Position numbers and translations under genes: made by a program. DNA of 64,000 nucleotides from Bacteroidia bacterium (lineage in GTDB: Bacteria; Bacteroidota; Bacteroidia; 2-12-FULL-35-15): NCBI GenBank assembly GCA_020051175.1, contig JAGVJJ010000044.1, positions 192,761 to 256,760 on the forward strand, in the 5' to 3' direction. The notes below the pieces were generated by a model. It ran no database searches. It saw nothing but the letters and a program-made list of their open reading frames with translations, and was not told the origin of the DNA. Of the stretch, positions 1 through 15,164 are shown piece after piece. Position 1 is the stretch's first letter. Each line of letters begins with the position of its first letter.

Positions 1-2
1 TT

Positions 3-458
3 ATGAATAATTTTGTAAAAGGCCTGTGTATCAAAGCTTCTTTTGTCACACTATTTATTTTGTTGTTTGCTGTTTTTTCCTGCAGCCATGAACCTGCAGC
101 AGTAGCAGATAAAAACGTTCAACGGGATACCTTGCAGAGCGATTTTATTTTTTCAACTAAAAATGATTCTGTTATTGATAACGGAGAATACATCAAGTAT
201 TACAAAAACGGGGTCATGGAGATGCGTGGCATGATGAAGAATGGAAAGCGTGATGGTGTATGGAAAAGTTGGTATGAGAGTGGTTTGCCCTGGAGTGAAA
301 CAACATTTAAAGAGGGCGTGAAAAATGGTAAAACTATTACCTGGTATGAGAACGAAACCAAGCGCTATGAAGGTTTTTATACCAATGATAAAGAAAGCGG
401 TAAATGGCTCTTTTGGGATGAGTCCGGTAAGCAGCAATACAGTAAGGATTACAAGTAG
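3..458 (+). CDS. MORN-variant repeat (YwqK-like) lipoprotein
   Basis: Signal peptide with lipobox (LFAVFSC). Tandem ~23-aa repeats follow, with the G-x-W/Y...Y-x-N-G signature (YIKYYKNGVMEMRG, DGVWKSWYESG, NGKTITWYENE, SGKWLFWDESG). Confidence 0.6.
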   Translation: MNNFVKGLCIKASFVTLFILLFAVFSCSHEPAAVADKNVQRDTLQSDFIFSTKNDSVIDNGEYIKYYKNGVMEMRGMMKNGKRDGVWKSWYESGLPWSETTFKEGVKNGKTITWYENETKRYEGFYTNDKESGKWLFWDESGKQQYSKDYK

Positions 459-568
459 TCTGCATTAAATATCCTTTTTTTTAACATACAAACTTCGTCC
501 AATGTGTGTTTTTTGCGCATAAATCCTTAAATAATTTCGTCCATTGTTGCAATTTTAGAAAAAGGTTA

Positions 569-576
569 TATATTTG
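569..576 (+). promoter_or_regulatory. Candidate Bacteroidota -7 box (TATATTTG, fits TAnnTTTG)
   Basis: It matches TAnnTTTG 17 nt upstream of the ATG at 593. TTG triplets lie at 544-549, at roughly -33 spacing. Confidence 0.3.
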
Positions 577-592
577 TTTAATAGCTAAACAA

Positions 593-1078
593 ATGACCAT
601 GAAACAAATTGCACTTTTTTTGTCCGTATTTTGTTTTACAAACTCTTTTTTCGCACAAACATTATCCCCTGAAGTTATATCGTCTGCCGGAACTGAATTT
701 ACCAATGGCTCCAACTCACTGAGTTGGACGCTGGGTGAACCGGTTACATCCACATTAACCAATAATACGGTTGTAACGCAGGGTTTTCACCAGGATAACC
801 TTATAATAAGCGGTATTGATTCACCAAAAGAGCCGGACGGAAGTGGCATTGCCGTTTTTCCAAACCCGGTGAGTGATATTGTTCTGGTTCAAATCAAATC
901 GAATGCTGATGAACAGAATAGTTTAGAGTTGTATGATGCTGATGGTAAGCTACTTTTAACGCATCAGATGACAAGTCAACTGGGAGAGATAAGCATGATG
1001 TCCTACCCAAGCGGAACTTATATTTTAAAAGTCAGAGGCAGCTCATTAAAATCTTACAAGATCATAAAAACGAAATAA
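593..1078 (+). CDS. Small secreted protein with T9SS type-A C-terminal sorting domain
   Basis: The start was trimmed to the ATG at 593 (MTMKQIALFLSVFCFTNSFFAQ signal). The C-terminus (IAVFPNPVSDIVLVQIK...GTYILKVRG...) is typical of a Por/T9SS CTD. The N-terminal motif GEPV...VVTQGFHQ is common in Bacteroidota surface proteins. Confidence 0.65.
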   Translation: MTMKQIALFLSVFCFTNSFFAQTLSPEVISSAGTEFTNGSNSLSWTLGEPVTSTLTNNTVVTQGFHQDNLIISGIDSPKEPDGSGIAVFPNPVSDIVLVQIKSNADEQNSLELYDADGKLLLTHQMTSQLGEISMMSYPSGTYILKVRGSSLKSYKIIKTK

Positions 1079-1102
1079 TCAACCTGTAAACAAATCCGAA
1101 AA

Positions 1103-2728
1103 ATGAAGAACACCTTACTTCTTTTATCTGCTGTTATTTTATTCAGCCTGTCGTTAAGTGCCCAGGTGCCACAGGGGTTTAATTACCAGGCAATCGCCCG
1201 TAATAATTCCGGGGCTGTAATTGCGAACCAAAATATAGGCCTTGAAATTAAATTGCGTCAGACAACTGCTACTGGTACTGTGGTGTATAGTGAAACACAT
1301 TCGGTTACTTCAAGCACTATTGGTTTGCTGAACCTGGTTGTAGGTGGAGGAACAGTTACTACCGGAACGTTCAGTTCTATTGATTGGTCTGCAGGTCCTT
1401 ATTTTATTGAGATTGGCATGGACGTGACAGGGGGGGCCAACTATACTGTAATGGGTACTCAGCAGTTGATGAGTGTTCCGTATGCCTTGTATGCTACTAA
1501 TTCCGGGGCACAAGGTGCTCAAGGTGCAACAGGTGTTACCGGTCCTACGGGCGCTGTTGGCGCTACCGGAGATATTGGTGCTACCGGTGATGCGGGTCCA
1601 ACAGGTGATATGGGAGCTACCGGTACTATGGGTGCAACAGGAGATATTGGTGCTACCGGTGCGGTAGGTACAACTGGTGCCGTAGGGGCAACCGGTGATA
1701 TGGGTGCCACAGGTGCTGTTGGTCCCGTAGGTACTACCGGTGACATTGGAGTAACCGGTTCTACAGGTTCAACCGGTGCTACCGGGCCTGTGGGTGACAA
1801 ATATGCAACCACATCTTCTACAACAATGGATATAGAAGCGGTTTCAACACCCATCTCATTTGTTGTAGAGACAGGTTTGGCTTATTCTATTGGGCAGGAT
1901 GTGATCATTGCATTTTCTTCAACTGAGCAAATGACGGGGACAATAACGGCATACAATTCCACAACTGGTGCAATAGACGTGACAGTTGCTACATCTACCG
2001 GCTCGGGTACCGGTCTTCAGCCCTGGTCAGTAAACTTAAAAGGTGCACCTGGCCCTGCCGGTCCTGCTGGCCCGGTTGGTGCAACGGGAAATAATGGAGC
2101 TATTGGTTCAACAGGTGCAACAGGCACAGTAGGTGTTACTGGTGCAACAGGCGATGTTGGAACTACTGGTGCAACTGGTTCTACAGGTGTTACCGGTCCA
2201 ACAGGTACTATTGGTTCAACTGGAGCTGATGGTGCAGTGGGCGTTACCGGTGCCACTGGTGCTACAGGTGTTGTTGGTGGGACAGGAGCTACTGGTGCAG
2301 TGGGAACCACAGGTGCAACAGGAACGATTGGTGTGACTGGAACAACGGGTAATACAGGGAGTACCGGTCCTACTGGTTCTGTGGGGCCAACAGGTGCCGA
2401 TGCAACATTTGCAGTTCAGTTCAATGTTGTAAACAGTGGTGCTTCTGCATATTTGTTTGATAACTCTGCTGACTATGTTTCGGGTGCTAATTCAAACCCT
2501 ACAATTACATTATACAGAGGCTTTACCTATAAGTTCAACATCAACTCACCGGGTCATCCTTTCCGGATAGCTTCAACACAAGGAGGGGCGCAGTTCAATG
2601 TGGGTGTTTCGAGCAACGATATAAGTTCAGGAACAATTACATTTAAGGTGCCGCAGAATGCACCTTCGCAGTTGTTTTACTATTGTATCTTCCACCCGGG
2701 AATGGCGGGGACGATAAATATTAATTAG
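1103..2728 (+). CDS. Collagen-like triple-helix repeat surface protein with C-terminal cupredoxin-like domain
   Basis: It has a signal peptide and a conserved N-terminal domain ([13 protein letters not shown]...). Two uninterrupted G-X-Y arrays follow (33 and 40 triplets). The C-terminal ~105 aa carry GHPFRI...YYCIFHPGM (H-x42-C-x2-H-x2-M). Confidence 0.8.
1505..1801 (+). repeat. G-X-Y (collagen-like) coding tandem repeat, 33 triplets
   Basis: The protein reads [28 protein letters not shown]... with Gly at every third residue. The DNA is a 9-nt-periodic GGTGCnACnGG-type repeat. Confidence 0.9.
2042..2401 (+). repeat. G-X-Y (collagen-like) coding tandem repeat, 40 triplets
   Basis: [25 protein letters not shown]...[12 protein letters not shown], with no interruption of the Gly periodicity. 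Confidence 0.9.
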
Positions 2729-2878
2729 AACGCACATTGTTATTGTATATTTTATTACGCTCTTGCTGAAAAGTGAGGGCGTAATAGTTTTAATAGCCCT
2801 GTATCAAAAGTTGTAACAGAGAAATTAAAGTTAAAGTTGTTCTTATGCTTTCTATTATTTCTTTAATGTGTTGTAATA

Positions 2879-3877
2879 CTAGAAATACCCTCTGTACACT
2901 ATCGCCACTTCTGCACCACCCCTCAAACGGCTTGCTGCTGTTAATTTAGAAATATTAATATCATAACTTGCAGAAAGCATTAGTCCTTTTCTGAATTCAA
3001 ATGCACCCATCACACTGAATGCATCTTTGTAGCGCCATTGTCCGCCTATATAAGCGTTTGGATTGGAATACCGGTGATCGACACGGTTGGTGCGTATCAG
3101 ATCGCCACCACCTTCACCAATTATAAATTTTACAAGACTGCCAATATTCAGCTCGCTGTGAGGGCCTTGTTTGCTGTATAAAATCTGTGGTAAAATGTAT
3201 ACGTATCCGTTCCCTACTTTAAACTGGTTGTTGAGGTGCGCAACCAGCTTATAATACATTTTTTCGTTGCTTGTAAATGATTGTTTGGGTTGATTGGCGT
3301 GGAATATAGCTACACCTAAAGTGTTTCTGAATCTTGTCTGGCTGGGGCTTACGCTATAGTTCCACATAACGCCTGCCGAAACATCCATATAGATATAGGA
3401 ATCTGAATAGTAGGATTCTCCTGAAGCAAGCGATGGATCGTATGTCGTGCCGTTAAACTGGCTGTCCCACTTCAAATCATCTGTTTTAATACTTCTTTGT
3501 CCAACACCATATTGTAAGCCTGCTATAAAGTTATTGCCGCCACCTGCATTCAGGTTGTAAGAAACTAACAGGTTGCCCTGAGTAATTCCTATTTGCGATT
3601 TGCCTGATTTGTCATTGAGAAACGCCATTCCTATTCCCAGTTTTTTCTTAGGAATGTTCATATCAACACCTGCATAAACTGTTTTATAAGGGTTTGAAAT
3701 GCTTTGCCACTGGTTTTTATAGACCGAAGAAAGGCGGTAACGGCCAATAAATACACCTGTTTGTGCCGGATTTACAAGCAAAGGGGCATTCTGAAACTGT
3801 GAGAAATGAATGTCCTGTGCCACTCCGGTGACCAGAGGTACTATGACGAAAAATAGTATGACTTTTAGTCTTTTCAT
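2879..3877 (-). CDS. T9SS membrane protein, PorP/SprF family
   Basis: The N-terminal hallmark QDIHFSQFQNAPLLVNPAQTG follows the signal peptide. It has a beta-barrel-like composition ending in ...VYRGYF, and it sits directly downstream of a type-B CTD cargo gene. Confidence 0.85.
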   Translation of the reverse strand: MKRLKVILFFVIVPLVTGVAQDIHFSQFQNAPLLVNPAQTGVFIGRYRLSSVYKNQWQSISNPYKTVYAGVDMNIPKKKLGIGMAFLNDKSGKSQIGITQGNLLVSYNLNAGGGNNFIAGLQYGVGQRSIKTDDLKWDSQFNGTTYDPSLASGESYYSDSYIYMDVSAGVMWNYSVSPSQTRFRNTLGVAIFHANQPKQSFTSNEKMYYKLVAHLNNQFKVGNGYVYILPQILYSKQGPHSELNIGSLVKFIIGEGGGDLIRTNRVDHRYSNPNAYIGGQWRYKDAFSVMGAFEFRKGLMLSASYDINISKLTAASRLRGGAEVAIVYRGYF

Positions 3878-3890
3878 TCAATAACACGAA

Positions 3891-6800
3891 TTACCTTACC
3901 AGCGTAACATCTCCTTTTTGGTTCTGTGTGGTGCCATCAGCCATGGAAACCTGCAGGTACCATACATATACACCCTGTTCTGCAGGTTTGTTTTTGTAGC
4001 GTCCGTCCCAACCTATGCTTGTATCTGTTGTCTCAAATACTTTTTCTCCCCAGCGGTCATAAATTAAAAAAGTGAATTTTTCTACACTTTTAGCACGTGC
4101 ATAAAGTATATCGTTTAAGCCATCACCATTGGGAGAAAAAATATCCGGAACAAAAATAACTACTGGTGGAAGAACACAAATTTCTTTTGAATATTCGTCC
4201 GGACAACTCCCTGCGTTCTCTACGTGAAGCGTTATTGTATAGTTACCTGGCTCTTCAAATGTGTGCTCTGGGTTTTGTCCTGTAGAATATGGAATTACTG
4301 TGCTGTCGCTCAGCTGCCAGTATCCCTGTGTTGCCCCGAGACTAAGGTCAATAAAGGTTACCGGGTTACTTTCAAAAGGGATGCACGATAAATTGGGATT
4401 TACAGAAAACAGAGCGTTAATAATGCCGTATCCCGGAATGGTAATGGTAGTATCAAAAAAACATCCTGATGCTGTTTCTGTAATTTTAACCGAATAGCTT
4501 GAGCCGGAAAAACCATTGAGGGTGCTGGATGTCTGTGCCGGGGTTGTAGCCCATAAATAGGAATAGTTTCCACTCCCTGCAACGGATGCACTGATAGTCC
4601 CAGGTGAACCATTGCAATTTATTGTGGATGTGCTGAATGATGGATAAAAGCTGGAGTATACAGAAATGGTAATAGAATCTGTAACATCATCGGAGCAGCC
4701 ATCGGAGGTGGTTACATTGTATGTTGTTGTATTTATGGGGCTAACAACATTCACATTGGTAGGGAACAGGCCGTTGCTCCAGGAATAATTGTACGTGGGT
4801 GCTGATGGGTTTCCACCAGTTGTTGTAAGTGTAATGGTTGCTCCGCCTCCTTTGCAGATGGTCATATTATTAGCAGACATTGTGGTTTGTAAAGGAGGAT
4901 ATATTGTTACTGTAAGCGTGTCGGATGTGTAGCAAAGGCCTGTACCGTACGAGTATATTAAATCATGTGTGCCTTCGCCTGCTATAGAGGGATTAAAATT
5001 GTTTCCTGAAATTCCGGCACCGGTCAAAGTTCCGTTTGCTGGTGCCACTGTGATTGGGTAATCATTGTTTTCATAGCAATACTGTGGATTCAAGCCGCTT
5101 ATCTGCGCTGCTACAAATTGGTATACTGTTACTATAATTGTATCTGTGCATCCGTTTGGTGAAGAATAGACAATTGGGAACGTGCCGGTACCACTTATGG
5201 AGGGATCAAATAAACCTGTGGAAGTGTTGATGACACCTGTTCCCTGCCAGCTGGAAGAAATTCCAATAGAGTCGAGAAGGAAAGCAGGGTGTGTTGTACA
5301 AATTGTTGTGTCGGAGTAGCTTAACTGTGAAGGATGCACGAACATAAACAATGTATCTGAGCAGGTGTTTGCAATATATACAAGCGTATGCATTCCGATA
5401 CCTGCTACTGATGGATCAAAATAATAATCGTTTCCCTGCATGCTTATGCCAGGGCCGCTCCATACACCACCTCCTGGATAATTGCGTGTTGTAGACCATT
5501 CAAGCACAATGGGATTGTCATTATCACAAAAGAACAGAGAGTCTTCGATAATGTTTGTAAGCAAGACATAAGATAGTATTGTATCGGTACAACCATTGGT
5601 TGCAGTGTAAACCAATGTGTCTGTAAAGTCGGTAATCCCTTGTACGTTGGGATTAAAATCTCCAGTGCCGTTTAATAATCCGCTGCTTCCGTTGTTGCTG
5701 GTTCCGATACTGTTCCAGACACCGCCTGTAGGGCTTGCTGTTGTTATGCTCTGTTGTGTTTGTACCGGGCAAAAGGAGATGTTGTATCCTGCATCAATTG
5801 GCTTAATATAAATGTGAACAGTGTCTGAACATCCATTGAGTTTATAAATAAAATCGTGCATTCCACTTCCGGCATCTCTAGGGTCGAGTATCCCATAAAT
5901 TGTGTCTGTTAAACCTGCTGTTAAAACCCATCTTCCGCCTGGTGGTGAAACTTGCAGCGTATCAGCTGGCTGTGATTCACAGATACTGTCCGTTACAGGA
6001 CTAATAGCTAAAGGCTGAACATAAACCTGCTTAAAATCAGTACACCCGTTGGGATGTGCATAGGTTACAGTAAAGGTGCCCAATGAATCCGGATTAAATA
6101 ATCCGGCTGGTGTGAGGTCATTGTAACCTGACCATGTGCCTCCCGCAGGAATGAAGCCTGTGAGGTTAAATGCAGCTGAGCCGGGACATGCAGCCTCGTC
6201 AAATCCGGCATCCATAGGTAATACAGTGATTATGATTGTATCCCTGCAGATGCCATTACTGGTATATAAAATGGCATGTGTACCTTGCATTGCAGTGTCG
6301 GGATCAAAAGTCCCCTGCAGTGTATCCGTTATTCCAAGGCCTGTCCAGATGCCACCTGGAGGAAATGCTGTAAGATTGAATGCTATTGCGGACTGACAAA
6401 TGGTATCTTGTGAAAGCGCTGTAATCTGTGGCTCTATAACGGTTATAGTTATACTGGAATTAAATACTGGTCCACCGGAAGTGGACTGTACCCCTAAAGT
6501 ATAGGTAGTAGTTGTGAGAGGACAAACAGTTTGAACCGGAGCATTTGACAAACCATGACTCCATGTGTAATTGTATGCCAGACAGGAATTAAGTACGGCC
6601 TGCAGCTGAACACAACTGCCGGAGCAAACCGTGTCATTTGTTGTTGCTGTAATGTTTACAGTCAGCGGACAATCCGTAACAATGAAAGAATTATTTACAG
6701 TAAATGTCCAGATACTATCGCAGTTGTCCGGTAAATTAATAGTAAAATCAACTGTATAACTACAGTTCTCTACGAGTGGTTGTGCAAGTTGCAGCTGTAT

Positions 6801-7424
6801 GTTTGTGGTGCTGTCTGCGACACAGTTTATTCCTGTTGCTCCACTTACAACAGGGGATGTAGGGCCGCTAATTGTAAATGCAGAGGCGTACAAGGAATCG
6901 CAGCTTATTTTTTTATTTAATTGTATATCAATTGTTGTTGAGTTACAAAGTGGAGCAGGAGCGATAGCAATTGTGGGTGGTACCGGAGGAATTACTGTTG
7001 AAGTCCATTGTGCTACCCAACCCATGTCCTGCAACGCAAAACTTGATTTAAAGTAAATGGTAAGGCAACCATTGGCAACAATGCCTGTTGGTGTATTGTT
7101 ACCTGTATATTTCCCTATAAGTGTATTGTTATCTATCACCGGGCCGTTGTATAAAAAGATAGTATCGAACCCGTTCTCCAGCTGAAATTGCTGAAAGGAC
7201 ATAGCGATTGTTCCTCCAGTGCAAATATGGAAGGTGTCGCTGGCCTGTGCCAGATATGTATTTCCCGGACCAGCATCGCTGTCATGTAATTCGCCTTTGC
7301 AATCGGTAATGGTTACGTTTTGGTGCGAAGGCATTGTAAAAACCGGGAGTTGGGCGCGTAAAGTGAAACACCCAATTATAAAGAGGAATGGCAAACAGTA
7401 TATGAAATTTTTACCTGGTCGCAC
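3891..7424 (-). CDS. Giant adhesin-like protein with T9SS type-B sorting domain (gliding-motility-associated C-terminal domain); CUB-like N-terminal domain plus ~8 Ig-like repeats
   Basis: The C-terminus is PDIFSPNGDGLNDILYA...YDRWGEKVFE...GWDGRYKNKPAEQGVYVWYLQV. An internal repeat recurs about 8 times: GG-x-W-[ST]-G-x-G-[IL]...F[DN]P...AG-x-G-x-H...Y....GC-x-D. Confidence 0.85.
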   Translation of the reverse strand: MRPGKNFIYCLPFLFIIGCFTLRAQLPVFTMPSHQNVTITDCKGELHDSDAGPGNTYLAQASDTFHICTGGTIAMSFQQFQLENGFDTIFLYNGPVIDNNTLIGKYTGNNTPTGIVANGCLTIYFKSSFALQDMGWVAQWTSTVIPPVPPTIAIAPAPLCNSTTIDIQLNKKISCDSLYASAFTISGPTSPVVSGATGINCVADSTTNIQLQLAQPLVENCSYTVDFTINLPDNCDSIWTFTVNNSFIVTDCPLTVNITATTNDTVCSGSCVQLQAVLNSCLAYNYTWSHGLSNAPVQTVCPLTTTTYTLGVQSTSGGPVFNSSITITVIEPQITALSQDTICQSAIAFNLTAFPPGGIWTGLGITDTLQGTFDPDTAMQGTHAILYTSNGICRDTIIITVLPMDAGFDEAACPGSAAFNLTGFIPAGGTWSGYNDLTPAGLFNPDSLGTFTVTYAHPNGCTDFKQVYVQPLAISPVTDSICESQPADTLQVSPPGGRWVLTAGLTDTIYGILDPRDAGSGMHDFIYKLNGCSDTVHIYIKPIDAGYNISFCPVQTQQSITTASPTGGVWNSIGTSNNGSSGLLNGTGDFNPNVQGITDFTDTLVYTATNGCTDTILSYVLLTNIIEDSLFFCDNDNPIVLEWSTTRNYPGGGVWSGPGISMQGNDYYFDPSVAGIGMHTLVYIANTCSDTLFMFVHPSQLSYSDTTICTTHPAFLLDSIGISSSWQGTGVINTSTGLFDPSISGTGTFPIVYSSPNGCTDTIIVTVYQFVAAQISGLNPQYCYENNDYPITVAPANGTLTGAGISGNNFNPSIAGEGTHDLIYSYGTGLCYTSDTLTVTIYPPLQTTMSANNMTICKGGGATITLTTTGGNPSAPTYNYSWSNGLFPTNVNVVSPINTTTYNVTTSDGCSDDVTDSITISVYSSFYPSFSTSTINCNGSPGTISASVAGSGNYSYLWATTPAQTSSTLNGFSGSSYSVKITETASGCFFDTTITIPGYGIINALFSVNPNLSCIPFESNPVTFIDLSLGATQGYWQLSDSTVIPYSTGQNPEHTFEEPGNYTITLHVENAGSCPDEYSKEICVLPPVVIFVPDIFSPNGDGLNDILYARAKSVEKFTFLIYDRWGEKVFETTDTSIGWDGRYKNKPAEQGVYVWYLQVSMADGTTQNQKGDVTLVR

Positions 7425-7435
7425 TTTGATAAGAA

Positions 7436-7873
7436 TTATAATGTATCATGAATTGCAATTGGTGGTGTGGCAATTGTATTGCTCCAGTTGCCAGCGCGGT
7501 CTTTCAGCTTAATGCTTAAAGTAGAGAGTTCTTCGCTGCCATTGCCCAATAAGAACATAGAGTTTAATTTTATTTTTAGCTGACCTTCAATTTTTAATTC
7601 AATATCCAGTGGTGCAAGCGGTTGAATGTGGTACCAGTCCGGATTTGCGAGACGACTGTCTTTTACCTGTAACGAATAGATATCCGGGGAACTGTCGCCA
7701 ATATCACCGTTATTATCTTTATATTTTATTGTTACTTCAATTGAGTCGCTGAATTGTTCTACATTTTCAGGGCTTACACTTACCAGCTCAATAGTTGGTT
7801 CTGGTGGCAGCTCTTTTTTCTTCTTGCATGAAAAAGAGAGTAGTATACAAAGTAGAAAGATTAAATTCTTCAT
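7436..7873 (-). CDS. Hypothetical lipoprotein (Ig-like, beta-rich)
   Basis: Lipobox ILLSFSC followed by KKKKELPPEP. It ends 11 nt upstream of the adhesin start and begins 2 nt after the upstream gene. I recognise no family. Confidence 0.5.
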   Translation of the reverse strand: MKNLIFLLCILLSFSCKKKKELPPEPTIELVSVSPENVEQFSDSIEVTIKYKDNNGDIGDSSPDIYSLQVKDSRLANPDWYHIQPLAPLDIELKIEGQLKIKLNSMFLLGNGSEELSTLSIKLKDRAGNWSNTIATPPIAIHDTL

Positions 7874-7875
7874 TG

Positions 7876-8835
7876 TTATAAAATTTTTAAGGCGAAATAA
7901 CCGGTCATAATTTCATTTGTTCCCGCATTGGGTATTTCGGTGGGTACACCCTGGCTTCCGTCATCTATAAACGCTCGTATATATAAATGTGTTCCTGCCG
8001 GATAACCTGAGGTGCTGAACGTTGCTTTGTGCGTAAACTGTACAGAGCTGCCGGTAAAATCACTGCCGGTTACACCACTTGAAGAATAGACCATGTTTGT
8101 AGCTGACGCAGTATTAAAGCCATCAAGTGATGTAGCTATTTTGCAATTTGTAGATACAAAGCCCGAAGCGGCAGTAGAATCATCTTTTACAGCAAACCAC
8201 AAGTCAACGGTGCTTCCCGCGGGTACTTCAATGGGTACAATATAGCCGCTTGCTCTTGAATAAGGTGTGCTGGTATTCCCTGATGGAAAGGCGAGGAATC
8301 CACTGATTTGAGGCTGTTGGTTGCCGGGGTGAGGGTAATTACCGAACATATCTTTCGCTCCGGCATTGATCCAGTTTTTTATGTTAAGAATGTATTCATC
8401 CTTTCTTCCAGTCCAGTCCGACTGAGGGTCAATTACCAATGGCATTAACCCCGCACCCATAGGTGTGTTTAGCCTGTGAAACAAAATGGACGAATCTGCT
8501 TTGTACGGATGAACCCTGTACCGGAATGCTCCATTACTTGTGTTTATAGGCTTTTGGTAGACAAGTGTATTGTATGCGCTGTTAATAGTTCTGAATTCAG
8601 GAGGGAATGTTCCGTCATGACATCCGGAATTGGCGCATGTGGGTTTAAATATTTTTGCGTGCAGGTAAGCAAAATTGCCCGGGTCAAGATTTGATGCATC
8701 AGGATTTGTTGAAGGGGCCTGCAAAGCCGGGTCATCGTATGGGTTAATAAATTTATCTTTTTTGCAGGATGCAATAAGTATAAACCCTGCAAGGATGCAG
8801 GGCACATAAATGGAATTATTTTTTTTATAATTCAT
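7876..8835 (-). CDS. Lipoprotein with planctomycete-type cytochrome-c-like (PSCyt-like) N-terminal domain, non-canonical C-x4-CH
   Basis: Lipobox ILIASC. The motif chain is IFKPTCANSGCHDG ... SSILFHRL ... GAGLMP ... IKNWINAGAKD, which follows the order of conserved positions I recall for PSCyt domains. The C-terminal half is beta-rich. Confidence 0.5.
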   Translation of the reverse strand: MNYKKNNSIYVPCILAGFILIASCKKDKFINPYDDPALQAPSTNPDASNLDPGNFAYLHAKIFKPTCANSGCHDGTFPPEFRTINSAYNTLVYQKPINTSNGAFRYRVHPYKADSSILFHRLNTPMGAGLMPLVIDPQSDWTGRKDEYILNIKNWINAGAKDMFGNYPHPGNQQPQISGFLAFPSGNTSTPYSRASGYIVPIEVPAGSTVDLWFAVKDDSTAASGFVSTNCKIATSLDGFNTASATNMVYSSSGVTGSDFTGSSVQFTHKATFSTSGYPAGTHLYIRAFIDDGSQGVPTEIPNAGTNEIMTGYFALKIL

Positions 8836-8841
8836 GTCAAA

Positions 8842-10236
8842 TTAAATCTTGTCAAATAAAGAACCTGCGCCCCCAAGCAGCATATTTGCTCCCATTACTT
8901 CCGATTTGAGTCCGAGTATATCTGCAATTGTAGGAACAATATCGGCTGTAGCCCATTGGCCAGTAAAGCTGGGGTTATTGGAACTGTTTACATTCATGTT
9001 CGGAACTACACTAGGGCCGGCCATAAGACAGAATACGTCCAGCGCATTAGAATCAGAGTGGTCGTATCCGAAAAAGTCATTTTGAGAATCTTTTATAGGG
9101 TTCGGTGTAGCATCCCTGCCGCACTCCGGAACTGCAATGATTGTGGTATTATTCGCCATGACAGAATCATTCTGGATAACGTTCCAAATATGGCCTACCG
9201 CATGATCCGCCCTGTGAATAGCTTTCAGGTAGTTAGTAAACCCTGTATGACAGGTATCCACAGCACTAAGGTTTACAACTGTAAGCTTAGGTTTAAATTC
9301 TTTCAGCACTTCACATGCATAACCGATGGTGGCGGTATCACCATTCCCGGCAGCACCGTGATCTGGCGGAAAATCAATAGTTCCGGCACTTGTTTTTTCA
9401 AACATCGTTTTCATAAAATGTTTGATCTGGTCTTTTTCGTCCTCGGTATTGCCAATACTAGGGAGCGTTTTTCCTACATTTTCAAAGCTATTGTCGAGGA
9501 AATACTTCATTTCATACATTGGCCCCAGCTGGTCCTGAGGATGGTATATACGCGCATCTTTTAAGTAGGCATCACCTTTAGGTCCGAAAGTGATTGTGGG
9601 TGCAAAAAAGTTAGCGCCATATTTTGTTCCGTAAGAAGGATGGTCGCTGTAGTTTAGTAATGGCAATGAATTGCCTATGCCATTCCCAACGAACCATATT
9701 TTAGAGGCAGGAAAATCAGTTGGTCCGCCATGTCTTCTGAGATACTCAAATATCGTAGGGTTTACGGGTCTTTGTTTTAATCCCTGAGCTGCGAATGTAT
9801 TTCCCTGAAGCAAAACATTCAAGCCGCCATAATGGCCTGGAGAACTGCTTTTCATTTCAGAGAAAAGCATACCCTGCTGCTGCAATGATTGGGATAAGAC
9901 AGGTTGTATTGGTGTTTGGCCACCGGAACCTTTGCCATATACAATTTTGCTCGAAGGCGCTGAACCGCTAAGCATGTTCGGCATGATGTTTCCCGTAACA
10001 TCTAGCTCCGGTTGGGCCTGAGGTGGTGCATACAGCATCTGGCTGCCCTGAAGGTATGTTTGTCCTATAGTTTCCTGCCAACGTACCCCGCCCGCAAACA
10101 TGACCAGCACAACATGGTTGGCCATGGGTGTAGCACCGGTGCTGGCAAACAACCTTCCTGTAGGCAGTATATACGGGGCTGCAAATGCTCCCGCTGCTGC
10201 AAGTCCGGCCTTCTTTATAAAATCTCTCCTTTTCAT
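8842..10236 (-). CDS. DUF1501-like Tat-exported protein (alkaline-phosphatase/sulfatase superfamily fold)
   Basis: The start was trimmed to MKRRDFIKKAGLAAAGAFAAP (twin-arginine signal). VVLVMFAGGVRWQET, DTCHTG, ECGRD and GYDHSD appear in the order expected of DUF1501 metal-site segments. Confidence 0.7.
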   Translation of the reverse strand: MKRRDFIKKAGLAAAGAFAAPYILPTGRLFASTGATPMANHVVLVMFAGGVRWQETIGQTYLQGSQMLYAPPQAQPELDVTGNIMPNMLSGSAPSSKIVYGKGSGGQTPIQPVLSQSLQQQGMLFSEMKSSSPGHYGGLNVLLQGNTFAAQGLKQRPVNPTIFEYLRRHGGPTDFPASKIWFVGNGIGNSLPLLNYSDHPSYGTKYGANFFAPTITFGPKGDAYLKDARIYHPQDQLGPMYEMKYFLDNSFENVGKTLPSIGNTEDEKDQIKHFMKTMFEKTSAGTIDFPPDHGAAGNGDTATIGYACEVLKEFKPKLTVVNLSAVDTCHTGFTNYLKAIHRADHAVGHIWNVIQNDSVMANNTTIIAVPECGRDATPNPIKDSQNDFFGYDHSDSNALDVFCLMAGPSVVPNMNVNSSNNPSFTGQWATADIVPTIADILGLKSEVMGANMLLGGAGSLFDKI

Positions 10237-10255
10237 GATGCTCAGGGTTTTAGCA

Positions 10256-10789
10256 TTAGTAATACATGTATTCATTCGACAAAGCGAAGGAGACATATAT
10301 CAATTCAGGCAAAATGGTATCTGCCGGTGTAATATGTGATGTTATATAATTGTTGAAATATGTTTTCTCTGCTTCTGTAGGATTGCGCACAAGGAAACGA
10401 TTGTACGTTTCCACAATAAATTTATCTACGTCACCAGCCATCTGGGCTTTAGTGGGGATAATAGTTCCGGGCTTATTCATAAAATTGCTGATAACGATCT
10501 CTCTTGCGAGCTCTTTATCCCCAATGGATTCCATGCATTGGCTGATATCAAATATCTGGTTTGCCGAAAGGGCGGTCTGAAACAGGTTTGCATGCAGTAT
10601 GGCAACATATTGCTCATCAGTTTTGAGTTTAGTTTTGCCGCTGTTTGGTGGCAGCAGGTCAACAGTGTTCACATCAAAAAGCCGGCTTTCCTCCTTTTTA
10701 CATCCACTGGCAACCCCTAAAAGGCATATAATTGACAGTATTGAGAATCCTTTTGAAAATAATAAATTGTATCGCATTTTGCTTTTCAT
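10256..10789 (-). CDS. Hypothetical lipoprotein with DUF1549/DUF4214-like helical motif
   Basis: The start was trimmed to the ATG at 10789 (MKSKMRYNLLFSKGFSILSIICLLGVASGC lipobox), just after the upstream stop. The motif is TYNRFLVRNPTEAEKTYF. Confidence 0.5.
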   Translation of the reverse strand: MKSKMRYNLLFSKGFSILSIICLLGVASGCKKEESRLFDVNTVDLLPPNSGKTKLKTDEQYVAILHANLFQTALSANQIFDISQCMESIGDKELAREIVISNFMNKPGTIIPTKAQMAGDVDKFIVETYNRFLVRNPTEAEKTYFNNYITSHITPADTILPELIYVSFALSNEYMYY

Positions 10790-10793
10790 TTGC

Positions 10794-11717
10794 TTAATCG
10801 AAATTTGCATATTCATCTGATTTCATAATGTGCAGCTGAATTTTTTGTATATCGTGATCATTAAAAAAAGTTTGCATGAGGCTGTAGGCTTCCTGCGTTG
10901 ACGGCTCCCTGGCCAGCAGATTTTTATACATCCACCGTATAATACCTTCATAAAACTCTTTGGAGTTTACAAGTATTTGTATGTATTCTCCTTTGTTGGC
11001 CGCTGATTTGCCAAAAAGTATATCGGGTGTATTGTATTCTACCATGTTATAACCTGCATTAAATTCGTTGTTGGTTGGGAACCTGAAGAATAAATCGTTG
11101 AACGAGGCATTCAGGAAATTAAAGGTGTTCATATTTATCTGGTCGTATATTCCATTGTTTAACATCCGTGCGAAAACATCTTTAATTTCAATGGAATCAA
11201 GCCGATAGTCTTTTTCACAGGCAAGCAATTTAATATAGTTGTTAAACCGCTGTTTGGAAATTTCAAACAGCAGGCTGTCGCCATTCAGTGAATCGATCGT
11301 TGCTGCATAAGAGGCATTGCCAGCTTCCTCTGCGATCAGGTCGTTAGATGCAGCTTCCAGTACACGGGCTTTACAGAGTTCATAAAACCTGTTGTAATAG
11401 GCATAATTGTATGAAGAATCTCCTGCAACGTATGAGGTATCTGACTGTAGTTTTATAATGAGTTGTTCTCTTGAACCAATGCTAAGACTATTTGTGCGTA
11501 GATAATTTTCCTGTTCTTCCATTTCAGAGTCCAGCGCTTCACGGCCAATGAGATCAATAAAAAGTCGGTTGATATAGTTCTGAAGTACTACTTTTGGCAC
11601 ACCATCGTAGTAGGGAGCATTGTTTCCCGGAACAACAATTTCTTTGTCTTTTTTGCAGCCATTAACCAATACAAAAACTGAAAACAATAAAATGAAGGGC
11701 TTTGTAAAATTTTTCAT
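10794..11717 (-). CDS. Hypothetical lipoprotein with three DUF1549/DUF4214-like helical motifs
   Basis: Lipobox FVLVNGC. The motifs are NYINRLFIDLIGREALDSEMEE, SFNDLFFRFPTNNEFNAG and WMYKNLLAREPSTQEAYSLM. Confidence 0.5.
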   Translation of the reverse strand: MKNFTKPFILLFSVFVLVNGCKKDKEIVVPGNNAPYYDGVPKVVLQNYINRLFIDLIGREALDSEMEEQENYLRTNSLSIGSREQLIIKLQSDTSYVAGDSSYNYAYYNRFYELCKARVLEAASNDLIAEEAGNASYAATIDSLNGDSLLFEISKQRFNNYIKLLACEKDYRLDSIEIKDVFARMLNNGIYDQINMNTFNFLNASFNDLFFRFPTNNEFNAGYNMVEYNTPDILFGKSAANKGEYIQILVNSKEFYEGIIRWMYKNLLAREPSTQEAYSLMQTFFNDHDIQKIQLHIMKSDEYANFD

Positions 11718-11797
11718 ACAGGAAATGCGGCTGTGAGCTTTGATATTATTAACGTTTAAATATAAAAATAGTTACTTTAAATGTGGGTTGGTTTAAT

Positions 11798-11832
11798 AAA
11801 AAAACCTCATCCTAACCAAGGATGAGGTTTTT
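11798..11832 (-). terminator. Rho-independent terminator of the 11851-12807 gene
   Basis: A perfect 10-bp stem AACCTCATCC / GGATGAGGTT (11803-11812 / 11820-11829) with a 7-nt loop. It is followed on the minus strand by a T7 run (the A-run at 11798-11804). Confidence 0.7.
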
Positions 11833-11850
11833 AATTGTATTGTCTCTTTT

Positions 11851-12807
11851 TTAGTAGGGCAATATAATCTGCTGAGGTGTATTATTGGCATCAACCCAGT
11901 TAAACTTATAACCATAAGGACAACCAGAAGCTGCTAGACCATCCGAATTAACACCGTAAGTTAGTGTAAGCAGGTAAGTAGACCAGCGAAAGTTGATTTT
12001 GCCAGTTAATGGCTTAAATATACAATTGTTAGAATTAACCAAGTCGTAGGAAAAAGGAACTTCAGCGTCAATGAAGTAATTATCTCCATATCTGTTTACT
12101 CCCCAGAATGCAGTACCAGGATAACCCCCTATTGCTGTATCGCCTTCAATGGTAGCTTTTATAATACCTCCATTGTTGCTGAATGTTCTGATTTTTTTTG
12201 CGTTCCAAGTACATTCTGTGCCATCTTGATATTCTACATGTATATTCGCTTTCACTTTATGTACAATCGGGGTACTCAACCAAATGAGCTCAAGCAAACC
12301 TCCCTGGTTCACATTTTTAACTGTATGCGTGCCGTTTATAGTGATAGATTTATTGGTGGCTACGTAGGTAATTTTATAATTGGTAAAAGTTAGCTGAGCA
12401 ACTGCTCCCGCTGTTGAAAACCGTACTACCTGTCCACCCTGAACAGGAAGCTGGATGGTAATGGTTCCCTCTCTTTTTTTACCAGAGCAGACAGTTCCGT
12501 CATAAGTCAATGTTATAATGCCCGTTGTTGCCGTGGTGGATGAATCGTAGGTCATGCCGCAAATGCTTTGTATGTCTCTTGTTGTAGAAATTTCAGACAT
12601 TGCTGAATTCGCATCGTCCATGGCCTGGTTGGATTCGGTTTCAAGATCTGTCTGGTCGGAAGCCCTTTGGGTCTGCTGTGTGGTTCCTATCGAACTTGTA
12701 GACGGAGGGGTTGGTGTTTCCTCTTCCTTCTTTTTACAGCCGGTATGTACAGAACAAATTATTATTGCACCGATAATAGTTTTAGAGATGAATCTGAATG
12801 CTTCCAT
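11851..12807 (-). CDS. Hypothetical lipoprotein (beta-rich, Thr/Gly-rich)
   Basis: Lipobox SVHTGC followed by an acidic/Thr-rich linker. It has its own terminator, so it is probably a separate transcription unit. Confidence 0.5.
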   Translation of the reverse strand: MEAFRFISKTIIGAIIICSVHTGCKKKEEETPTPPSTSSIGTTQQTQRASDQTDLETESNQAMDDANSAMSEISTTRDIQSICGMTYDSSTTATTGIITLTYDGTVCSGKKREGTITIQLPVQGGQVVRFSTAGAVAQLTFTNYKITYVATNKSITINGTHTVKNVNQGGLLELIWLSTPIVHKVKANIHVEYQDGTECTWNAKKIRTFSNNGGIIKATIEGDTAIGGYPGTAFWGVNRYGDNYFIDAEVPFSYDLVNSNNCIFKPLTGKINFRWSTYLLTLTYGVNSDGLAASGCPYGYKFNWVDANNTPQQIILPY

Positions 12808-12984
12808 AACGCGGTTTTTTAATAGTTAAAGTATATATAGATATAAAGTATTTTTTTACTAAGTCATAAACAAATCTAATGAATCTATCTTAAATTCCAA
12901 ATATACTTTTGAAAAAAATTCCAGCTCCTATGTCTTGAATTCAAGGTAAATGAGTTTGGAATTTAGAATTAAGTTAAGGAATTA

Positions 12985-15126
12985 TTATATTCTTACTCCA
13001 ATTATGCAAATATCATCTACCTGTTCAAGATTCCCCATCCATTTTTGGAGTGAGGAATCTAGCTTGTCTTTTTGCTCGGAAGGGGTGTATAAATGATTTG
13101 CAAGCAACATTTCTTTTAATGCCTTGTGTTTTAACTTTTTTCCATGGGGACCACCAAACTGATCAGGATAGCCATCCGTGAATAAATAAAATATATCCCC
13201 TGCGTTATAACGTATGGTGTGAGTTGTAAAAGGAAGCGGATTCTCGGTTTTGCCGATTGCCTGTTTGTTCGCTTTTATTTCAATCAACTTCCCGCTGGAA
13301 ATGTACCATAAAGGATTATTGGCCCCACTCCATTTGATTTCCTTTGCCTGGAAATTGATTGAAATGAGTGAAATGTCCATTCCATCCTTTACATCCATAT
13401 CGCTTTTTGAAAAGTTTTCCAATACCAGTTCTCTTGTTTTATCCAGTATTTTGCCGGGTTCCGTTAATCCTGCTTCCAATACTGCCATATTCAGTGCATT
13501 GCTGCAGATTACACTGATAATGGCCCCTGGTATTCCGTGCCCAGTTCCATCGGCTACAGCTAGGAACAATGTATCTTTTTTACGTTCCATCCAGTAAAAA
13601 TCACCCGCTACAATGTCTTTGGGCTTATAAAGAATAAAGCTGTCCGATAACATGGATTTAATGTACTGTTCAGGCGGCAAGATGGCATCTTGCAGACGTT
13701 TAGCGTAGGTGAACGAAGCAAGTATTTCTTTTTGCTTTTCTTCTACGATGTTTTTTTGTTTTTCTATTTCTTTGTTTTGTCGTCTGGTAAGCCTTAAACG
13801 GTTAAACGCAAAAATAGTAAAGCCAAGAATCAGGAGTATACTGCCAGTCCCCGCATAGATCAGTATATTTTGCTTTTGTGCACGTTCGGCAGATACTGCC
13901 ATTTGCTTTTCGTGCTCTTTTTCATCCAATGCCCTCTGTTTCTCGTATGTGTATCTAAGATCTTGTTTAAGAACTTCTTTTTGATTGGTTTCATTCAGTA
14001 TGCTGTCGCGCATTTGTACGAACAGTTCGTGCATAGCCAGGGCTTCTTTGTAATTGCCATTTAATTTATAGCTGTTATACAAAGCCTGACCGGCATCTCG
14101 TGTAGCGGAAACAAGGCTGCCCTCCTGCGCAATCAACAGCGCTCTTTTGTAAAAAGGAATTGCCTTATCTATTTCTCCTTCCATTTTATAAACATCCCCT
14201 ATATAATTCAATGAGGCGGCTATCCATCTCTTATTATCAATTTCTTCGAATATCTTTAAACTGCGGTTGAGATAATCCAAAGCCTCCGAACTGGCCCCGA
14301 TCTTTTTGTATACAAACCCGATATTACCTAAAGCAAGTGCTATATTATTTTTATCTCCTATTTCTTCACTTACTGTTAATGACCGGTTGAAAAATTTCAT
14401 TGCTTTCGCCTCGTTTCCCATATCGGTATATAGTGATCCTAGGGCGCTGTATGCAATAGCCACTCCTCTTTTATCACCGATGCTTTCCCTTATCTTTAAG
14501 CTCCGTGTCTGGTAATCAATCGCTTTCAGTGTATCGGCCAGTTCCTGGTAAATTCTTCCAATATTGCCTAGGCAGTTGGCTTCTCCCTTTTGGTCACGAA
14601 TTTCCTCGTTTATTTCGAGACTGCGGGTATAATAGTCAATAGCTTTGTCATTTTCAGCCTGGCCCTGGTAAACAGTACCCAGGTTATTCAGCGTGGCAGC
14701 AATTCCTTTTTTATCTCCTATTTTGGTTCTGATTTCTAAGCTGCGTGTATAATAATCCAATGCCTTAAAACTTTCTCCTTTATTGTAAAAAATTATTCCG
14801 AGGCTGTTCAATGCAAGTGCAAGCGATTTTTTGAATGTAAATTTTTCAGTTGATGTTAAAGAAACATCTTTTAAATTTTTTTCAGCAGCAGCCACAATTT
14901 TCTGGTTCAGTTCCTCATCGAGTTTGGGATCAGATATATATATAAGATTATCCCATGCAATGTATGCAGCAATTTTACTGGTATCGTGGGAGGCAGAATT
15001 AATAATTTCCATAAGTGAGTCAATAGTTCGTTTTTGAGGAACAGCTGACTGTCCTATCAGATTAGTTTGCATAAAAAGCAAAACTATCAAAACATAATAT
15101 TCTAAACACTTGAACATTTTCAACAT
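12985..15126 (-). CDS. TPR-repeat sensor / transmembrane / PP2C-type (SpoIIE family) serine phosphatase
   Basis: It has an N-terminal signal and about 8 TPR units (ALNSLGIIFYNKGESFKALDYYTRSLEI...). A coiled coil and one TM helix (ILIYAGTGSILLILGFTIFAF) follow. The C-terminus is a PP2C domain (GDFYW...DGTGHGIPGA...DGYPDQ). Confidence 0.85.
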   Translation of the reverse strand: MLKMFKCLEYYVLIVLLFMQTNLIGQSAVPQKRTIDSLMEIINSASHDTSKIAAYIAWDNLIYISDPKLDEELNQKIVAAAEKNLKDVSLTSTEKFTFKKSLALALNSLGIIFYNKGESFKALDYYTRSLEIRTKIGDKKGIAATLNNLGTVYQGQAENDKAIDYYTRSLEINEEIRDQKGEANCLGNIGRIYQELADTLKAIDYQTRSLKIRESIGDKRGVAIAYSALGSLYTDMGNEAKAMKFFNRSLTVSEEIGDKNNIALALGNIGFVYKKIGASSEALDYLNRSLKIFEEIDNKRWIAASLNYIGDVYKMEGEIDKAIPFYKRALLIAQEGSLVSATRDAGQALYNSYKLNGNYKEALAMHELFVQMRDSILNETNQKEVLKQDLRYTYEKQRALDEKEHEKQMAVSAERAQKQNILIYAGTGSILLILGFTIFAFNRLRLTRRQNKEIEKQKNIVEEKQKEILASFTYAKRLQDAILPPEQYIKSMLSDSFILYKPKDIVAGDFYWMERKKDTLFLAVADGTGHGIPGAIISVICSNALNMAVLEAGLTEPGKILDKTRELVLENFSKSDMDVKDGMDISLISINFQAKEIKWSGANNPLWYISSGKLIEIKANKQAIGKTENPLPFTTHTIRYNAGDIFYLFTDGYPDQFGGPHGKKLKHKALKEMLLANHLYTPSEQKDKLDSSLQKWMGNLEQVDDICIIGVRI

Positions 15127-15164
15127 TGTATTCTCTCAAATAAGTATTTTTATTGTTCAATAAA

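Follow-up and report, generated by a model that had tools for sequence, protein, structure and literature searches.

Seven genes lying between positions 2879 and 11717 of a 64,000-nucleotide stretch of contig JAGVJJ010000044.1 from a Bacteroidia bacterium (hereafter the window) were analysed as a candidate envelope system. Gene coordinates were taken from the six-frame open reading frame (ORF) list of the window, where all seven ORFs fall on the minus strand in the order B, C, D, E, F, a protein with a C-terminal domain (CTD) for a type IX secretion system (T9SS), and a PorP/SprF-family protein (Table 1). The intergenic gaps derived from the coordinates are, from B to PorP, 4, 19, 6, 2, 11 and 13 nucleotides (nt), and the ORF list reproduces the gene positions and spacings proposed in an earlier analysis made from the DNA letters only (the sequence-only reading). 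The longest frames of C and D extend to 10816 and 10296, respectively, and the starts chosen here, giving proteins of 177 and 464 amino acids (aa), agree with the public gene calls. The B to F proteins carry only the annotation "hypothetical protein" in a Bacteroidia metagenome-assembled genome (MAG).

The 5' boundary of the string is set by a clear terminator that the sequence-only reading had placed just upstream and that was found there, past the stop codon of the upstream gene (11851) and ahead of B. Its minus-strand sequence is AAAAACCTCATCC-TTGGTT-AGGATGAGGTTTTTTT, a perfect 13-bp hairpin followed by a T run, and an AT-rich stretch of ~80 nt separates it from B. At the other end, a hairpin (2752-2787) lies between the PorP stop and the end of a convergent plus-strand gene (2728). 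Scanning positions 1-16000 for terminators gave 9 sites, fewer than the 13.7 +/- 3.5 of shuffled sequence. No terminator had been seen within the string in the sequence-only reading; the scan gave five weak terminator-like sites there, every one of them inside coding sequence.

Table 1. Features of the seven-gene string and its borders (window positions).
Feature	Positions	Strand	Description
B	10794-11717	minus	307 aa predicted lipoprotein; three DUF4214 / phycobilisome-linker-like helical units
C	10256-10789	minus	177 aa predicted lipoprotein; two DUF4214-like units
D	8842-10236	minus	464 aa; predicted Tat-exported, alkaline-phosphatase superfamily, divergent DUF1501 relative
D twin-arginine signal region	10132-10236	minus	residues 1-35; TIGR01409 17.1 bits
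E	7876-8835	minus	319 aa predicted lipoprotein, two domains
E N-terminal four-helix domain	8320-8700	minus	residues 46-172; putative mono-haem c-type cytochrome domain
E C67-x4-C72-H73-D74-G75	8617-8637	minus	invariant among aligned homologues
E C-terminal Ig-like beta-sandwich	7882-8310	minus	residues 176-318
F	7436-7873	minus	145 aa predicted lipoprotein; no Pfam match; always 3' of E
T9SS cargo (CTD protein)	3891-7424	minus	1177 aa
Type-B CTD of cargo	3903-4154	minus	residues 1091-1174
PorP/SprF-family outer-membrane protein	2879-3877	minus	332 aa; expected anchor and secretion partner of cargo
Intrinsic terminator of upstream gene	11798-11832	minus	13-bp stem and T run; symmetric, so bidirectional
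Weak terminator-like sites	8803-8784, 9839-9820, 6057-6042	minus	terminator scan
Weak terminator-like sites	7240-7253, 3974-3986	plus	terminator scan

D carries a twin-arginine translocation (Tat) signal, RRDFIKK, in which the arginine pair is invariant and which passes the TIGR01409 model (cut-off 16.7 bits). Members of its family share 57-62% identity and have kept Tat export. Conserved motifs are GGVRxQE, VDxCH, HRADH, PECGR and YDHSD, and the residues D327, H330, H341-R-A-D344, C372-G-R374 and D392-H393-S-D395 are invariant within the family; a wider set of relatives shares the RR signal, GGxR, a D..H pair, PExGR, DH and a C-terminal D..PT. The Pfam scan of D gave one weak match, to Phosphodiest, a family matched weakly by 6 of 20 family members (best 5.5e-5), and other relatives of D match Sulfatase, Metalloenzyme or Phosphodiest. 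PDB sequence searches with the D sequence and the D profile returned nothing significant. Only 973 relatives at E<=1e-3 were recovered when 1.84 billion representatives were searched with the D profile, and therefore D belongs to a small family of its own, which stays separate from DUF1501, a very large family. The two families are linked by P0393, which is reached from D with high significance (D profile 5e-44, hhalign 1.5e-71) and itself scores 28.6 bits against DUF1501 (PF07394, gathering score 27 bits). Sub-threshold DUF1501 matches are found in two further relatives of D, P0385 (E 3e-3) and P0372 (0.018). Through these intermediate sequences D is best described as related, though divergently, to DUF1501 within the alkaline-phosphatase superfamily.

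A separate feature of D is the segment PYILPxGRLFA (residues 21-31), located just past the hydrophobic core of the Tat signal and invariant in D homologues of only 55-60% identity. Signal c-regions are normally variable, and the segment may be the mature N-terminus of D, docking to a partner.

Conservation of the string was followed by mapping the seven proteins of the window with tblastn onto 80 loci from a genome scan and onto L001-L003. D as a query collected 1286 clusters at 90% identity, and the genome scan found D relatives in at least 570 species-representative genomes. The best 80 loci of the scan all come from MAGs, mostly labelled Flavobacteriales or Bacteroidota/Bacteroidetes, with a few labelled Cryomorphaceae, Crocinitomicaceae or Vicingaceae and a few bins evidently mislabelled. 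The same gene order and strand recurs in about 80 species-level genomes, and the genes flanking the string vary between them. B followed by C precedes D in 68 of the 69 loci with enough upstream sequence, and E and F lie downstream of D. Of 62 loci, 58 have the CTD protein directly 3' of F and on the same strand, over a range of D identity that reaches down to 54%. The loci without it are L006, L045, L054 and L075, and the genes after F in the three that were inspected (L006, L045 and L075) are unrelated. PorP/SprF lies 3' of the CTD gene in 35 of 52 loci, the remaining 17 keeping a type-B-like C-terminus with no adjacent PorP gene. Median intergenic distances at all junctions are between -4 and 11 nt, being 3 nt from F to the CTD gene and -4 nt (usually a 4-nt overlap) from the CTD gene to PorP. 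Because the order is conserved, the gaps are short and the flanks differ, the string is a conserved operon-like unit and not a chance juxtaposition, in line with the co-directional, operon-like string that had been proposed subject to a check of its neighbourhood.

The last two genes encode a type-B CTD protein and its PorP/SprF partner, and all four curated models for this assignment, made earlier from the sequence, were passed. The 1177-aa protein scores 63.2 bits against CHU_C (cut-off 27) and 49.2 against TIGR04131 (cut-off 35) at residues 1091-1177, and the 332-aa protein scores 122.2 bits against PorP_SprF (PF11751, cut-off 22.3) and 157.2 against TIGR03519 (cut-off 90.55). The larger protein starts with a CUB-like domain, which is borderline in the window protein and not marked weak in the L002 orthologue, and continues with about eight Cys-pair immunoglobulin (Ig)-like repeats, a PKD domain and the type-B CTD. 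Across 57 orthologues 30 of its 36 cysteines are conserved and 110 positions are at least 95% conserved, so that it is a conserved orthologous component and not an adhesin that evolves fast. PorP-like proteins are known anchors of type-B CTD proteins (PMC9143113).

B, C, E and F are predicted to be lipoproteins, each having a hydrophobic stretch, a lipobox cysteine and then KK-type residues. The lipoboxes, judged from the sequence, are ...VNGC followed by KKDKE in B (invariant Cys C21), ...ASGC followed by KKEE in C, ...IASC followed by KKDK in E (invariant Cys C24) and ...SFSC followed by KKKK in F. Pfam and NCBIfam scans of the window proteins and of their family alignments did not place any of the proteins B to F in a family with significance. 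The top hhalign matches of B with C and of E with F (both 88-89%) were discarded as they cover the signal-peptide/lipobox region only.

B is all-helical and consists of three units, each with an invariant R-x-P-x-x-x-E. The four copies of an RxPxxxE-type helical motif noticed earlier in B and C are all present, and among 30 B homologues their R, P and E residues vary little or not at all (R59/E60/E65, R212/P214/E218 and R270/P272/E276). DUF4214 (PF13946, cut-off 23.2 bits) is approached by the window proteins themselves (B 20.1 bits, C 18.8 bits). Among 30 B homologues 19 match it (best 7e-6), as do 8 of 10 C homologues, and two of these C sequences score above the cut-off (23.3 and 25.0 bits). 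The phycobilisome-linker family is matched by 14 of the 30 B homologues, and phycobilisome linkers were also the best, though not significant, hits of the B profile in the PDB (E about 0.3). DUF1800 (PF08811, cut-off 26.1 bits) is matched by 5 of 30 B homologues below its cut-off (best E 0.01) and was not matched by C in the Pfam scans. The repeated units of B and C would thus be of the DUF4214 / linker type. A match between units 2 and 3 of B (96.7%) was discarded because the cut-outs overlapped. P0288, a 462-aa protein, was considered as a functional B-C fusion and rejected, since the signal peptide and lipobox of C are kept internally; it is most likely a lost stop codon with read-through or a gene-call artefact.

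E has 764 homologue clusters, in none of which a Pfam domain was found. C67-x4-C72-H73-D74-G75, M131-P132 and W155-I156 are invariant in 30 aligned homologues. AlphaFold models show the four-helix N-terminal domain followed by the Ig-like beta-sandwich, with a mean pLDDT (predicted local distance difference test) of 82.5 when the whole of E is modelled and 86.8 when the N-domain is modelled by itself. CX4CH lies at the end of the first helix and Met-Pro stands before the long last helix, a modelled layout consistent with the topology of a class I cytochrome c. Weak matches to the SO2930 dihaem cytochrome c family (TIGR03806) were obtained for 22 of 30 E homologues (best 5.9e-4). As judged from the motif and the weak profile matches, CX4CH is most likely the site at which the N-domain binds one c-type haem, and Met131 would be its distal ligand. 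The small lipoprotein F gave no match in Pfam and NCBIfam scans of the protein and its family alignment, nor any recognisable relatives outside these loci. An acidic loop around F residues 53-60, KDNNGDIGD (DGDGDLGE in L085), is conserved in F orthologues and resembles a calcium-binding DxDxDG loop.

Distant relatives of D help to divide the string. In L085/L086, around P0366, orthologues of B, C, D, E and F (hhalign 99.9-100%) are present with no CTD protein or PorP, and the P0407 contig repeats the gene sizes and order of this module. In L087, P0372 is accompanied by a B-like protein and by a 165-aa lipoprotein that corresponds to the CX4CH domain alone. Since these distant B-F clusters are devoid of the CTD protein and PorP, B to F are the evolutionary core, to which the T9SS pair was added in the lineage of the window. 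The CX4CH domain, retained in L085, L087 and the protein described next, is the conserved part of E.

In L084 the gene of P0393 is preceded by that of a 902-aa protein (p902) in which a CX4CH domain like that of E is followed by a PKD domain and then by a C-terminus of DUF1800-like character. Its N-terminus contains C-GTSG-CH and aligns with the E N-domain over 99 columns (77% probability, E 2e-5). Its C-terminal region scores 25.5 bits against DUF1800, just below the cut-off, and the same region gives weak matches to DUF4214, PSCyt2 (1.6e-4) and PSD1 (7.7e-3). The C family aligns with p902 residues 780-902 (123 residues), as far as a shared C-terminal "EY..Y" (95.8% probability, E 7.8e-9). 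This protein is direct evidence, though a single example, that E-like and C-like parts can occur in one protein beside a DUF1501-type gene. Other relatives of D adjoin multihaem cytochromes (11 CXXCH) with LVIVD repeats or carry a segment resembling cytochrome c7 as a fusion, and this recurring cytochrome link supports a redox connection.

Taken together, we favour on balance a reading in which the string is one operon of two units, the B-F core and a T9SS pair functionally linked with it. Its parts do not stand equally firm. The homologies and the architecture, as read from the sequences, are very probably right, and B to F would be the form, strongly diverged, that envelope modules centred on DUF1501 take in Flavobacteriales; the split architecture is new as a variant of modules that are already known but uncharacterised. 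The coupled mechanism is considerably more tentative. By their export signals, D would leave by the Tat route, B, C, E and F as lipoproteins, and the cargo by the general secretory (Sec) route with its CTD. D would be a catalytic metalloenzyme held at the membrane by the helical lipoproteins B and C, whose five DUF4214-type units would stand in for a DUF1800-like partner, and B, C, E and F may together tether D in a membrane-attached periplasmic complex with F as a small accessory lipoprotein. E would supply or remove electrons through its one haem, and a hydrolytic or transferase reaction at the metal site of D may be coupled to, or controlled by, electron transfer through this haem. The T9SS pair would be stably co-transcribed with the first unit in this lineage, and the PorP-anchored protein could be the cell-surface ligand-binding arm of the B-F process. 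The most far-reaching form of the proposal is one trans-envelope system in which the Ig-repeat protein captures an extracellular ligand and the haem c and metalloenzyme complex processes it by a redox-coupled reaction; we put this forward as speculation that is quite unlikely to hold in full. If it were true, the operon would be the first functional handle on the DUF1501/DUF1800/PSCyt modules that are abundant in Planctomycetes, Verrucomicrobia and many other phyla.

Several results weigh against the favoured reading, and the alternatives to it draw on them. The main alternative is that the two units are functionally independent and share a transcript through inherited synteny, the surface protein being simply a gliding or adhesion protein. 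The distant clusters in L085/L086, on the P0407 contig and in L087 lack the downstream T9SS pair, and because of them the coupling of the two units is something that we infer from synteny. The adhesin is also missing in 4 of 62 close loci and the adjacent PorP gene in 17 of 52, and pairs of type-B CTD and PorP genes are self-sufficient elsewhere (PMC9143113). The suggestion that adhesin and PorP belong to the module is therefore upheld in most of the close loci, but not universally. On the other hand, a well-conserved orthologue with 30 of its 36 cysteines retained follows F in 58 of 62 species-level genomes to 54% D identity, with a median gap of 3 nt and amid differing flanks, and neutral synteny across such divergence would be unusual. 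Independence of the two units is thus a possible, though not the expected, explanation.

A second alternative is that the CX4CH of E is a metal site (Cu, Zn or Fe) or a disulphide-plus-His site, and that the module has no redox role. The motif is C-x4-CH and not CXXCH, and CX4CH is rare among c-type cytochromes. E has no Pfam cytochrome match, and no member of the 30 homologues matched PSCyt1 (PF07635) at E<=1. PDB sequence searches with the E and E-N-domain profiles returned nothing significant (the SiaC matches of E in the profile search were rejected as noise). Foldseek against the PDB found only generic Ig-like folds for full-length E (RhoGDI/NPC2, E about 1e-3) and no match at E<=10 for the N-domain alone, and therefore the structural comparison speaks neither for nor against a cytochrome fold. 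Where E has Met-Pro, p902 shows Leu-Pro-His in the hhalign alignment. The case for haem binding by E is made by the motif and by weak profile matches. Nevertheless, the spacing in E is that of a class I cytochrome c (a helix, C-x4-CH, about 58 residues, the invariant MP and a long C-terminal helix), the weak dihaem cytochrome c matches recur in 22 of 30 homologues, and relatives of D repeatedly adjoin, or are fused with, genuine CXXCH cytochromes. A site without redox function appears somewhat unlikely. Of the PSCyt-like cytochrome-c-type segment seen earlier in E, the invariant cytochrome-c-type motif stands and the PSCyt assignment does not.

The sequence-only reading had regarded the lipoproteins as the parts of a fused module distributed over separate genes and had compared B and C with DUF1549 and DUF4214. 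A strict version of this idea is that B, C and E are the separated PSCyt1, PSCyt2 (DUF1549) and PSD1 (DUF1553) domains of a planctomycete-type protein. The RxPxxxE motif of B and C does resemble the DUF1549 motif, the weak PSCyt2 and PSD1 matches of p902 overlap its DUF1800/DUF4214 region, and cytochrome-like and helical domains beside a DUF1501-like gene are the same layout as in PSCyt pairs (PMC3542564). However, among B homologues PSCyt2 (PF07583, cut-off 29.8 bits) was matched by 2 of 30 (best 0.025) and PSD1 (PF07587, cut-off 28.5 bits) by 1 of 30 (0.084), none near the cut-offs; DUF4214 and DUF1800 fit B and C better, and E has CX4CH in place of CXXCH and no PSCyt1 match. Membership of B and C in DUF1549 or DUF1553 is therefore not supported at the profile level, and this alternative is improbable. 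What survives is the DUF4214-like helical character of B and C and, through p902, the fusion of E-like and C-like parts beside a DUF1501-type gene, although not under the PSCyt, DUF1549 and DUF1553 models. Since the nearest Pfam families of B and C are DUF4214 and, faintly, DUF1800, the DUF1800-DUF1501 pair seems to be the better analogy for the string. The fusion argument has its own weaknesses: p902 is the one fused example found, other distant relatives of D having different neighbours (proteins of 441 aa in L088 and 474 aa in L090 are unrelated to B, C and E), and B reaches at most 30% probability against p902, its last unit mapping just upstream of the C-matched region.

D itself had been likened to DUF1501, a likeness that is retained through P0393 but not by direct test, as neither D nor any of 19 homologues matched PF07394 at E<=1. 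Nor does any of these sequences reach a Pfam catalytic-family cut-off. D has GGVR where the superfamily usually has its first metal-binding Asp after strand 1, and the absence of this Asp counts against an active enzyme. Catalysis is nevertheless predicted as likely, and the proposal that D is a non-catalytic pseudoenzyme in a purely structural envelope or surface scaffold, for which the GGVR strand and the sub-threshold scores speak, is improbable in view of the strictly invariant D327, H330, H341-R-A-D344, C372-G-R374 and D392-H393 at positions typical of the superfamily metal site and of a family identity and a retained Tat export that are both typical of cofactor-bearing enzymes.

DUF1501-centred modules are among the commonest conserved gene sets without a function and have been flagged in Planctomycetes-Verrucomicrobia-Chlamydiae (PVC) bacteria since 2004-2012. 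DUF1800 and DUF1501 occur as a widespread operon (PMC5122149), and DUF1501 with PSCyt partners forms a conserved module in Planctomycetes and Verrucomicrobia, in which carbohydrate- or protein-binding domains are sometimes fused into the PSCyt proteins (PMC3542564, PMC5615132); these three papers give no function for the DUF1501, DUF1800 or PSCyt modules. As in the DUF1800-DUF1501 operons, the string has a helical partner gene directly upstream of a Tat-exported DUF1501-type protein, with C aligning to the DUF1800-like end of p902 and D linked to DUF1501 via P0393. Unlike in those operons, two short lipoproteins with DUF4214 as their best-scoring family take the place of the one partner, the DUF1501 model is not reached by D, and a CX4CH lipoprotein, a small lipoprotein and, in this lineage, a T9SS cargo/anchor pair are added. 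With the PSCyt-DUF1501 pairs (Kamneva et al. 2012, PMC3542564; He et al. 2017, PMC5615132) the string shares cytochrome-c-motif and helical domains beside a Tat-signal DUF1501-type protein, but B, C and E fail the PSCyt1, PSCyt2 and PSD1 models, the motif is CX4CH and the parts are separate lipoproteins. Those pairs often have extra binding domains, and in the window a separate T9SS-secreted protein appears to supply the binding.

The last two genes resemble SprB-SprF (Gorasia et al. 2022, PMC9143113; PMC12618676) in having a CHU_C / TIGR04131 CTD on a large Ig-repeat protein with a PorP/SprF gene next to it. They differ from it in being co-operonic with five unrelated envelope genes, in a cargo that is a conserved orthologue with a CUB-like N-domain, and in the non-adjacent PorP gene of 17 of 52 related loci. 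B and C share with DUF4214 and phycobilisome-linker (PF00427) modules the repetition of helical units of ~60-70 aa with 'LLxRxPxxxE ... EY', whereas they score at or below the cut-offs and are predicted envelope lipoproteins, not components of large secreted proteins or of phycobilisomes.

A large clade of aquatic Flavobacteriales thus appears to carry a cryptic version of these modules that current domain libraries miss. Each part is a separate small protein, which makes expression, mutation and interaction testable one by one, and the tie to one defined T9SS surface protein suggests the cell surface as the place to seek the substrate. For the T9SS field, the string provides a conserved type-B cargo with a defined genetic context. 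The interest of the locus, which we consider moderate, lies in its exposing a large family that lacks annotation, together with the split architecture and the specific link to the T9SS.

Two further observations concern distant relatives of D. In L084 (9197-12277), L088 (8282-11644) and L089 (4569-7931) such relatives (P0393 and P0413) are followed by proteins of 1026-1120 aa with many CXXCH haem motifs (11 in L088) and LVIVD repeats, and in L084 an EF-hand protein comes next; this combination of DUF1501-like and multihaem genes looks like an undescribed pairing in its own right. In L090 (6580-8194) and L091 (3550-5164) a metal-sensing repressor of the CsoR type (Trns_repr_metal) precedes the relative P0443, which hints that this branch may be under metal-responsive regulation.

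The genes around the string in the window were also inspected. The upstream gene (11851-12807, minus strand) encodes a 318-aa lipoprotein with no family match and 47% identity to its counterpart in the closest relative (L003/L004). It was considered as a member of the module and rejected, since the terminator parts it from B and it is kept only in the closest genome. Further upstream, tandem paralogues on the minus strand (12985-15126 and 15165-17282) each comprise TPR repeats, a transmembrane segment and a SpoIIE/PP2C phosphatase domain, and one orthologue is found at the corresponding place in L003, the closest genome. On the other side, a plus-strand gene (1103-2728) encodes a protein of 541 aa in which G-x-T triplets form long collagen-like repeats (Pfam Collagen 1.3e-30). 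Its C-terminus (...HPFRI...) resembles by eye a type-1 copper (cupredoxin) ligand set, and L003 has an orthologue at this position. A small protein with a T9SS type-A CTD (596-1078; Por_Secre_tail 4e-11) and a MORN-repeat lipoprotein (3-458), both also on the plus strand, lie downstream of this gene, and therefore the neighbourhood has both type-A and type-B T9SS cargo.

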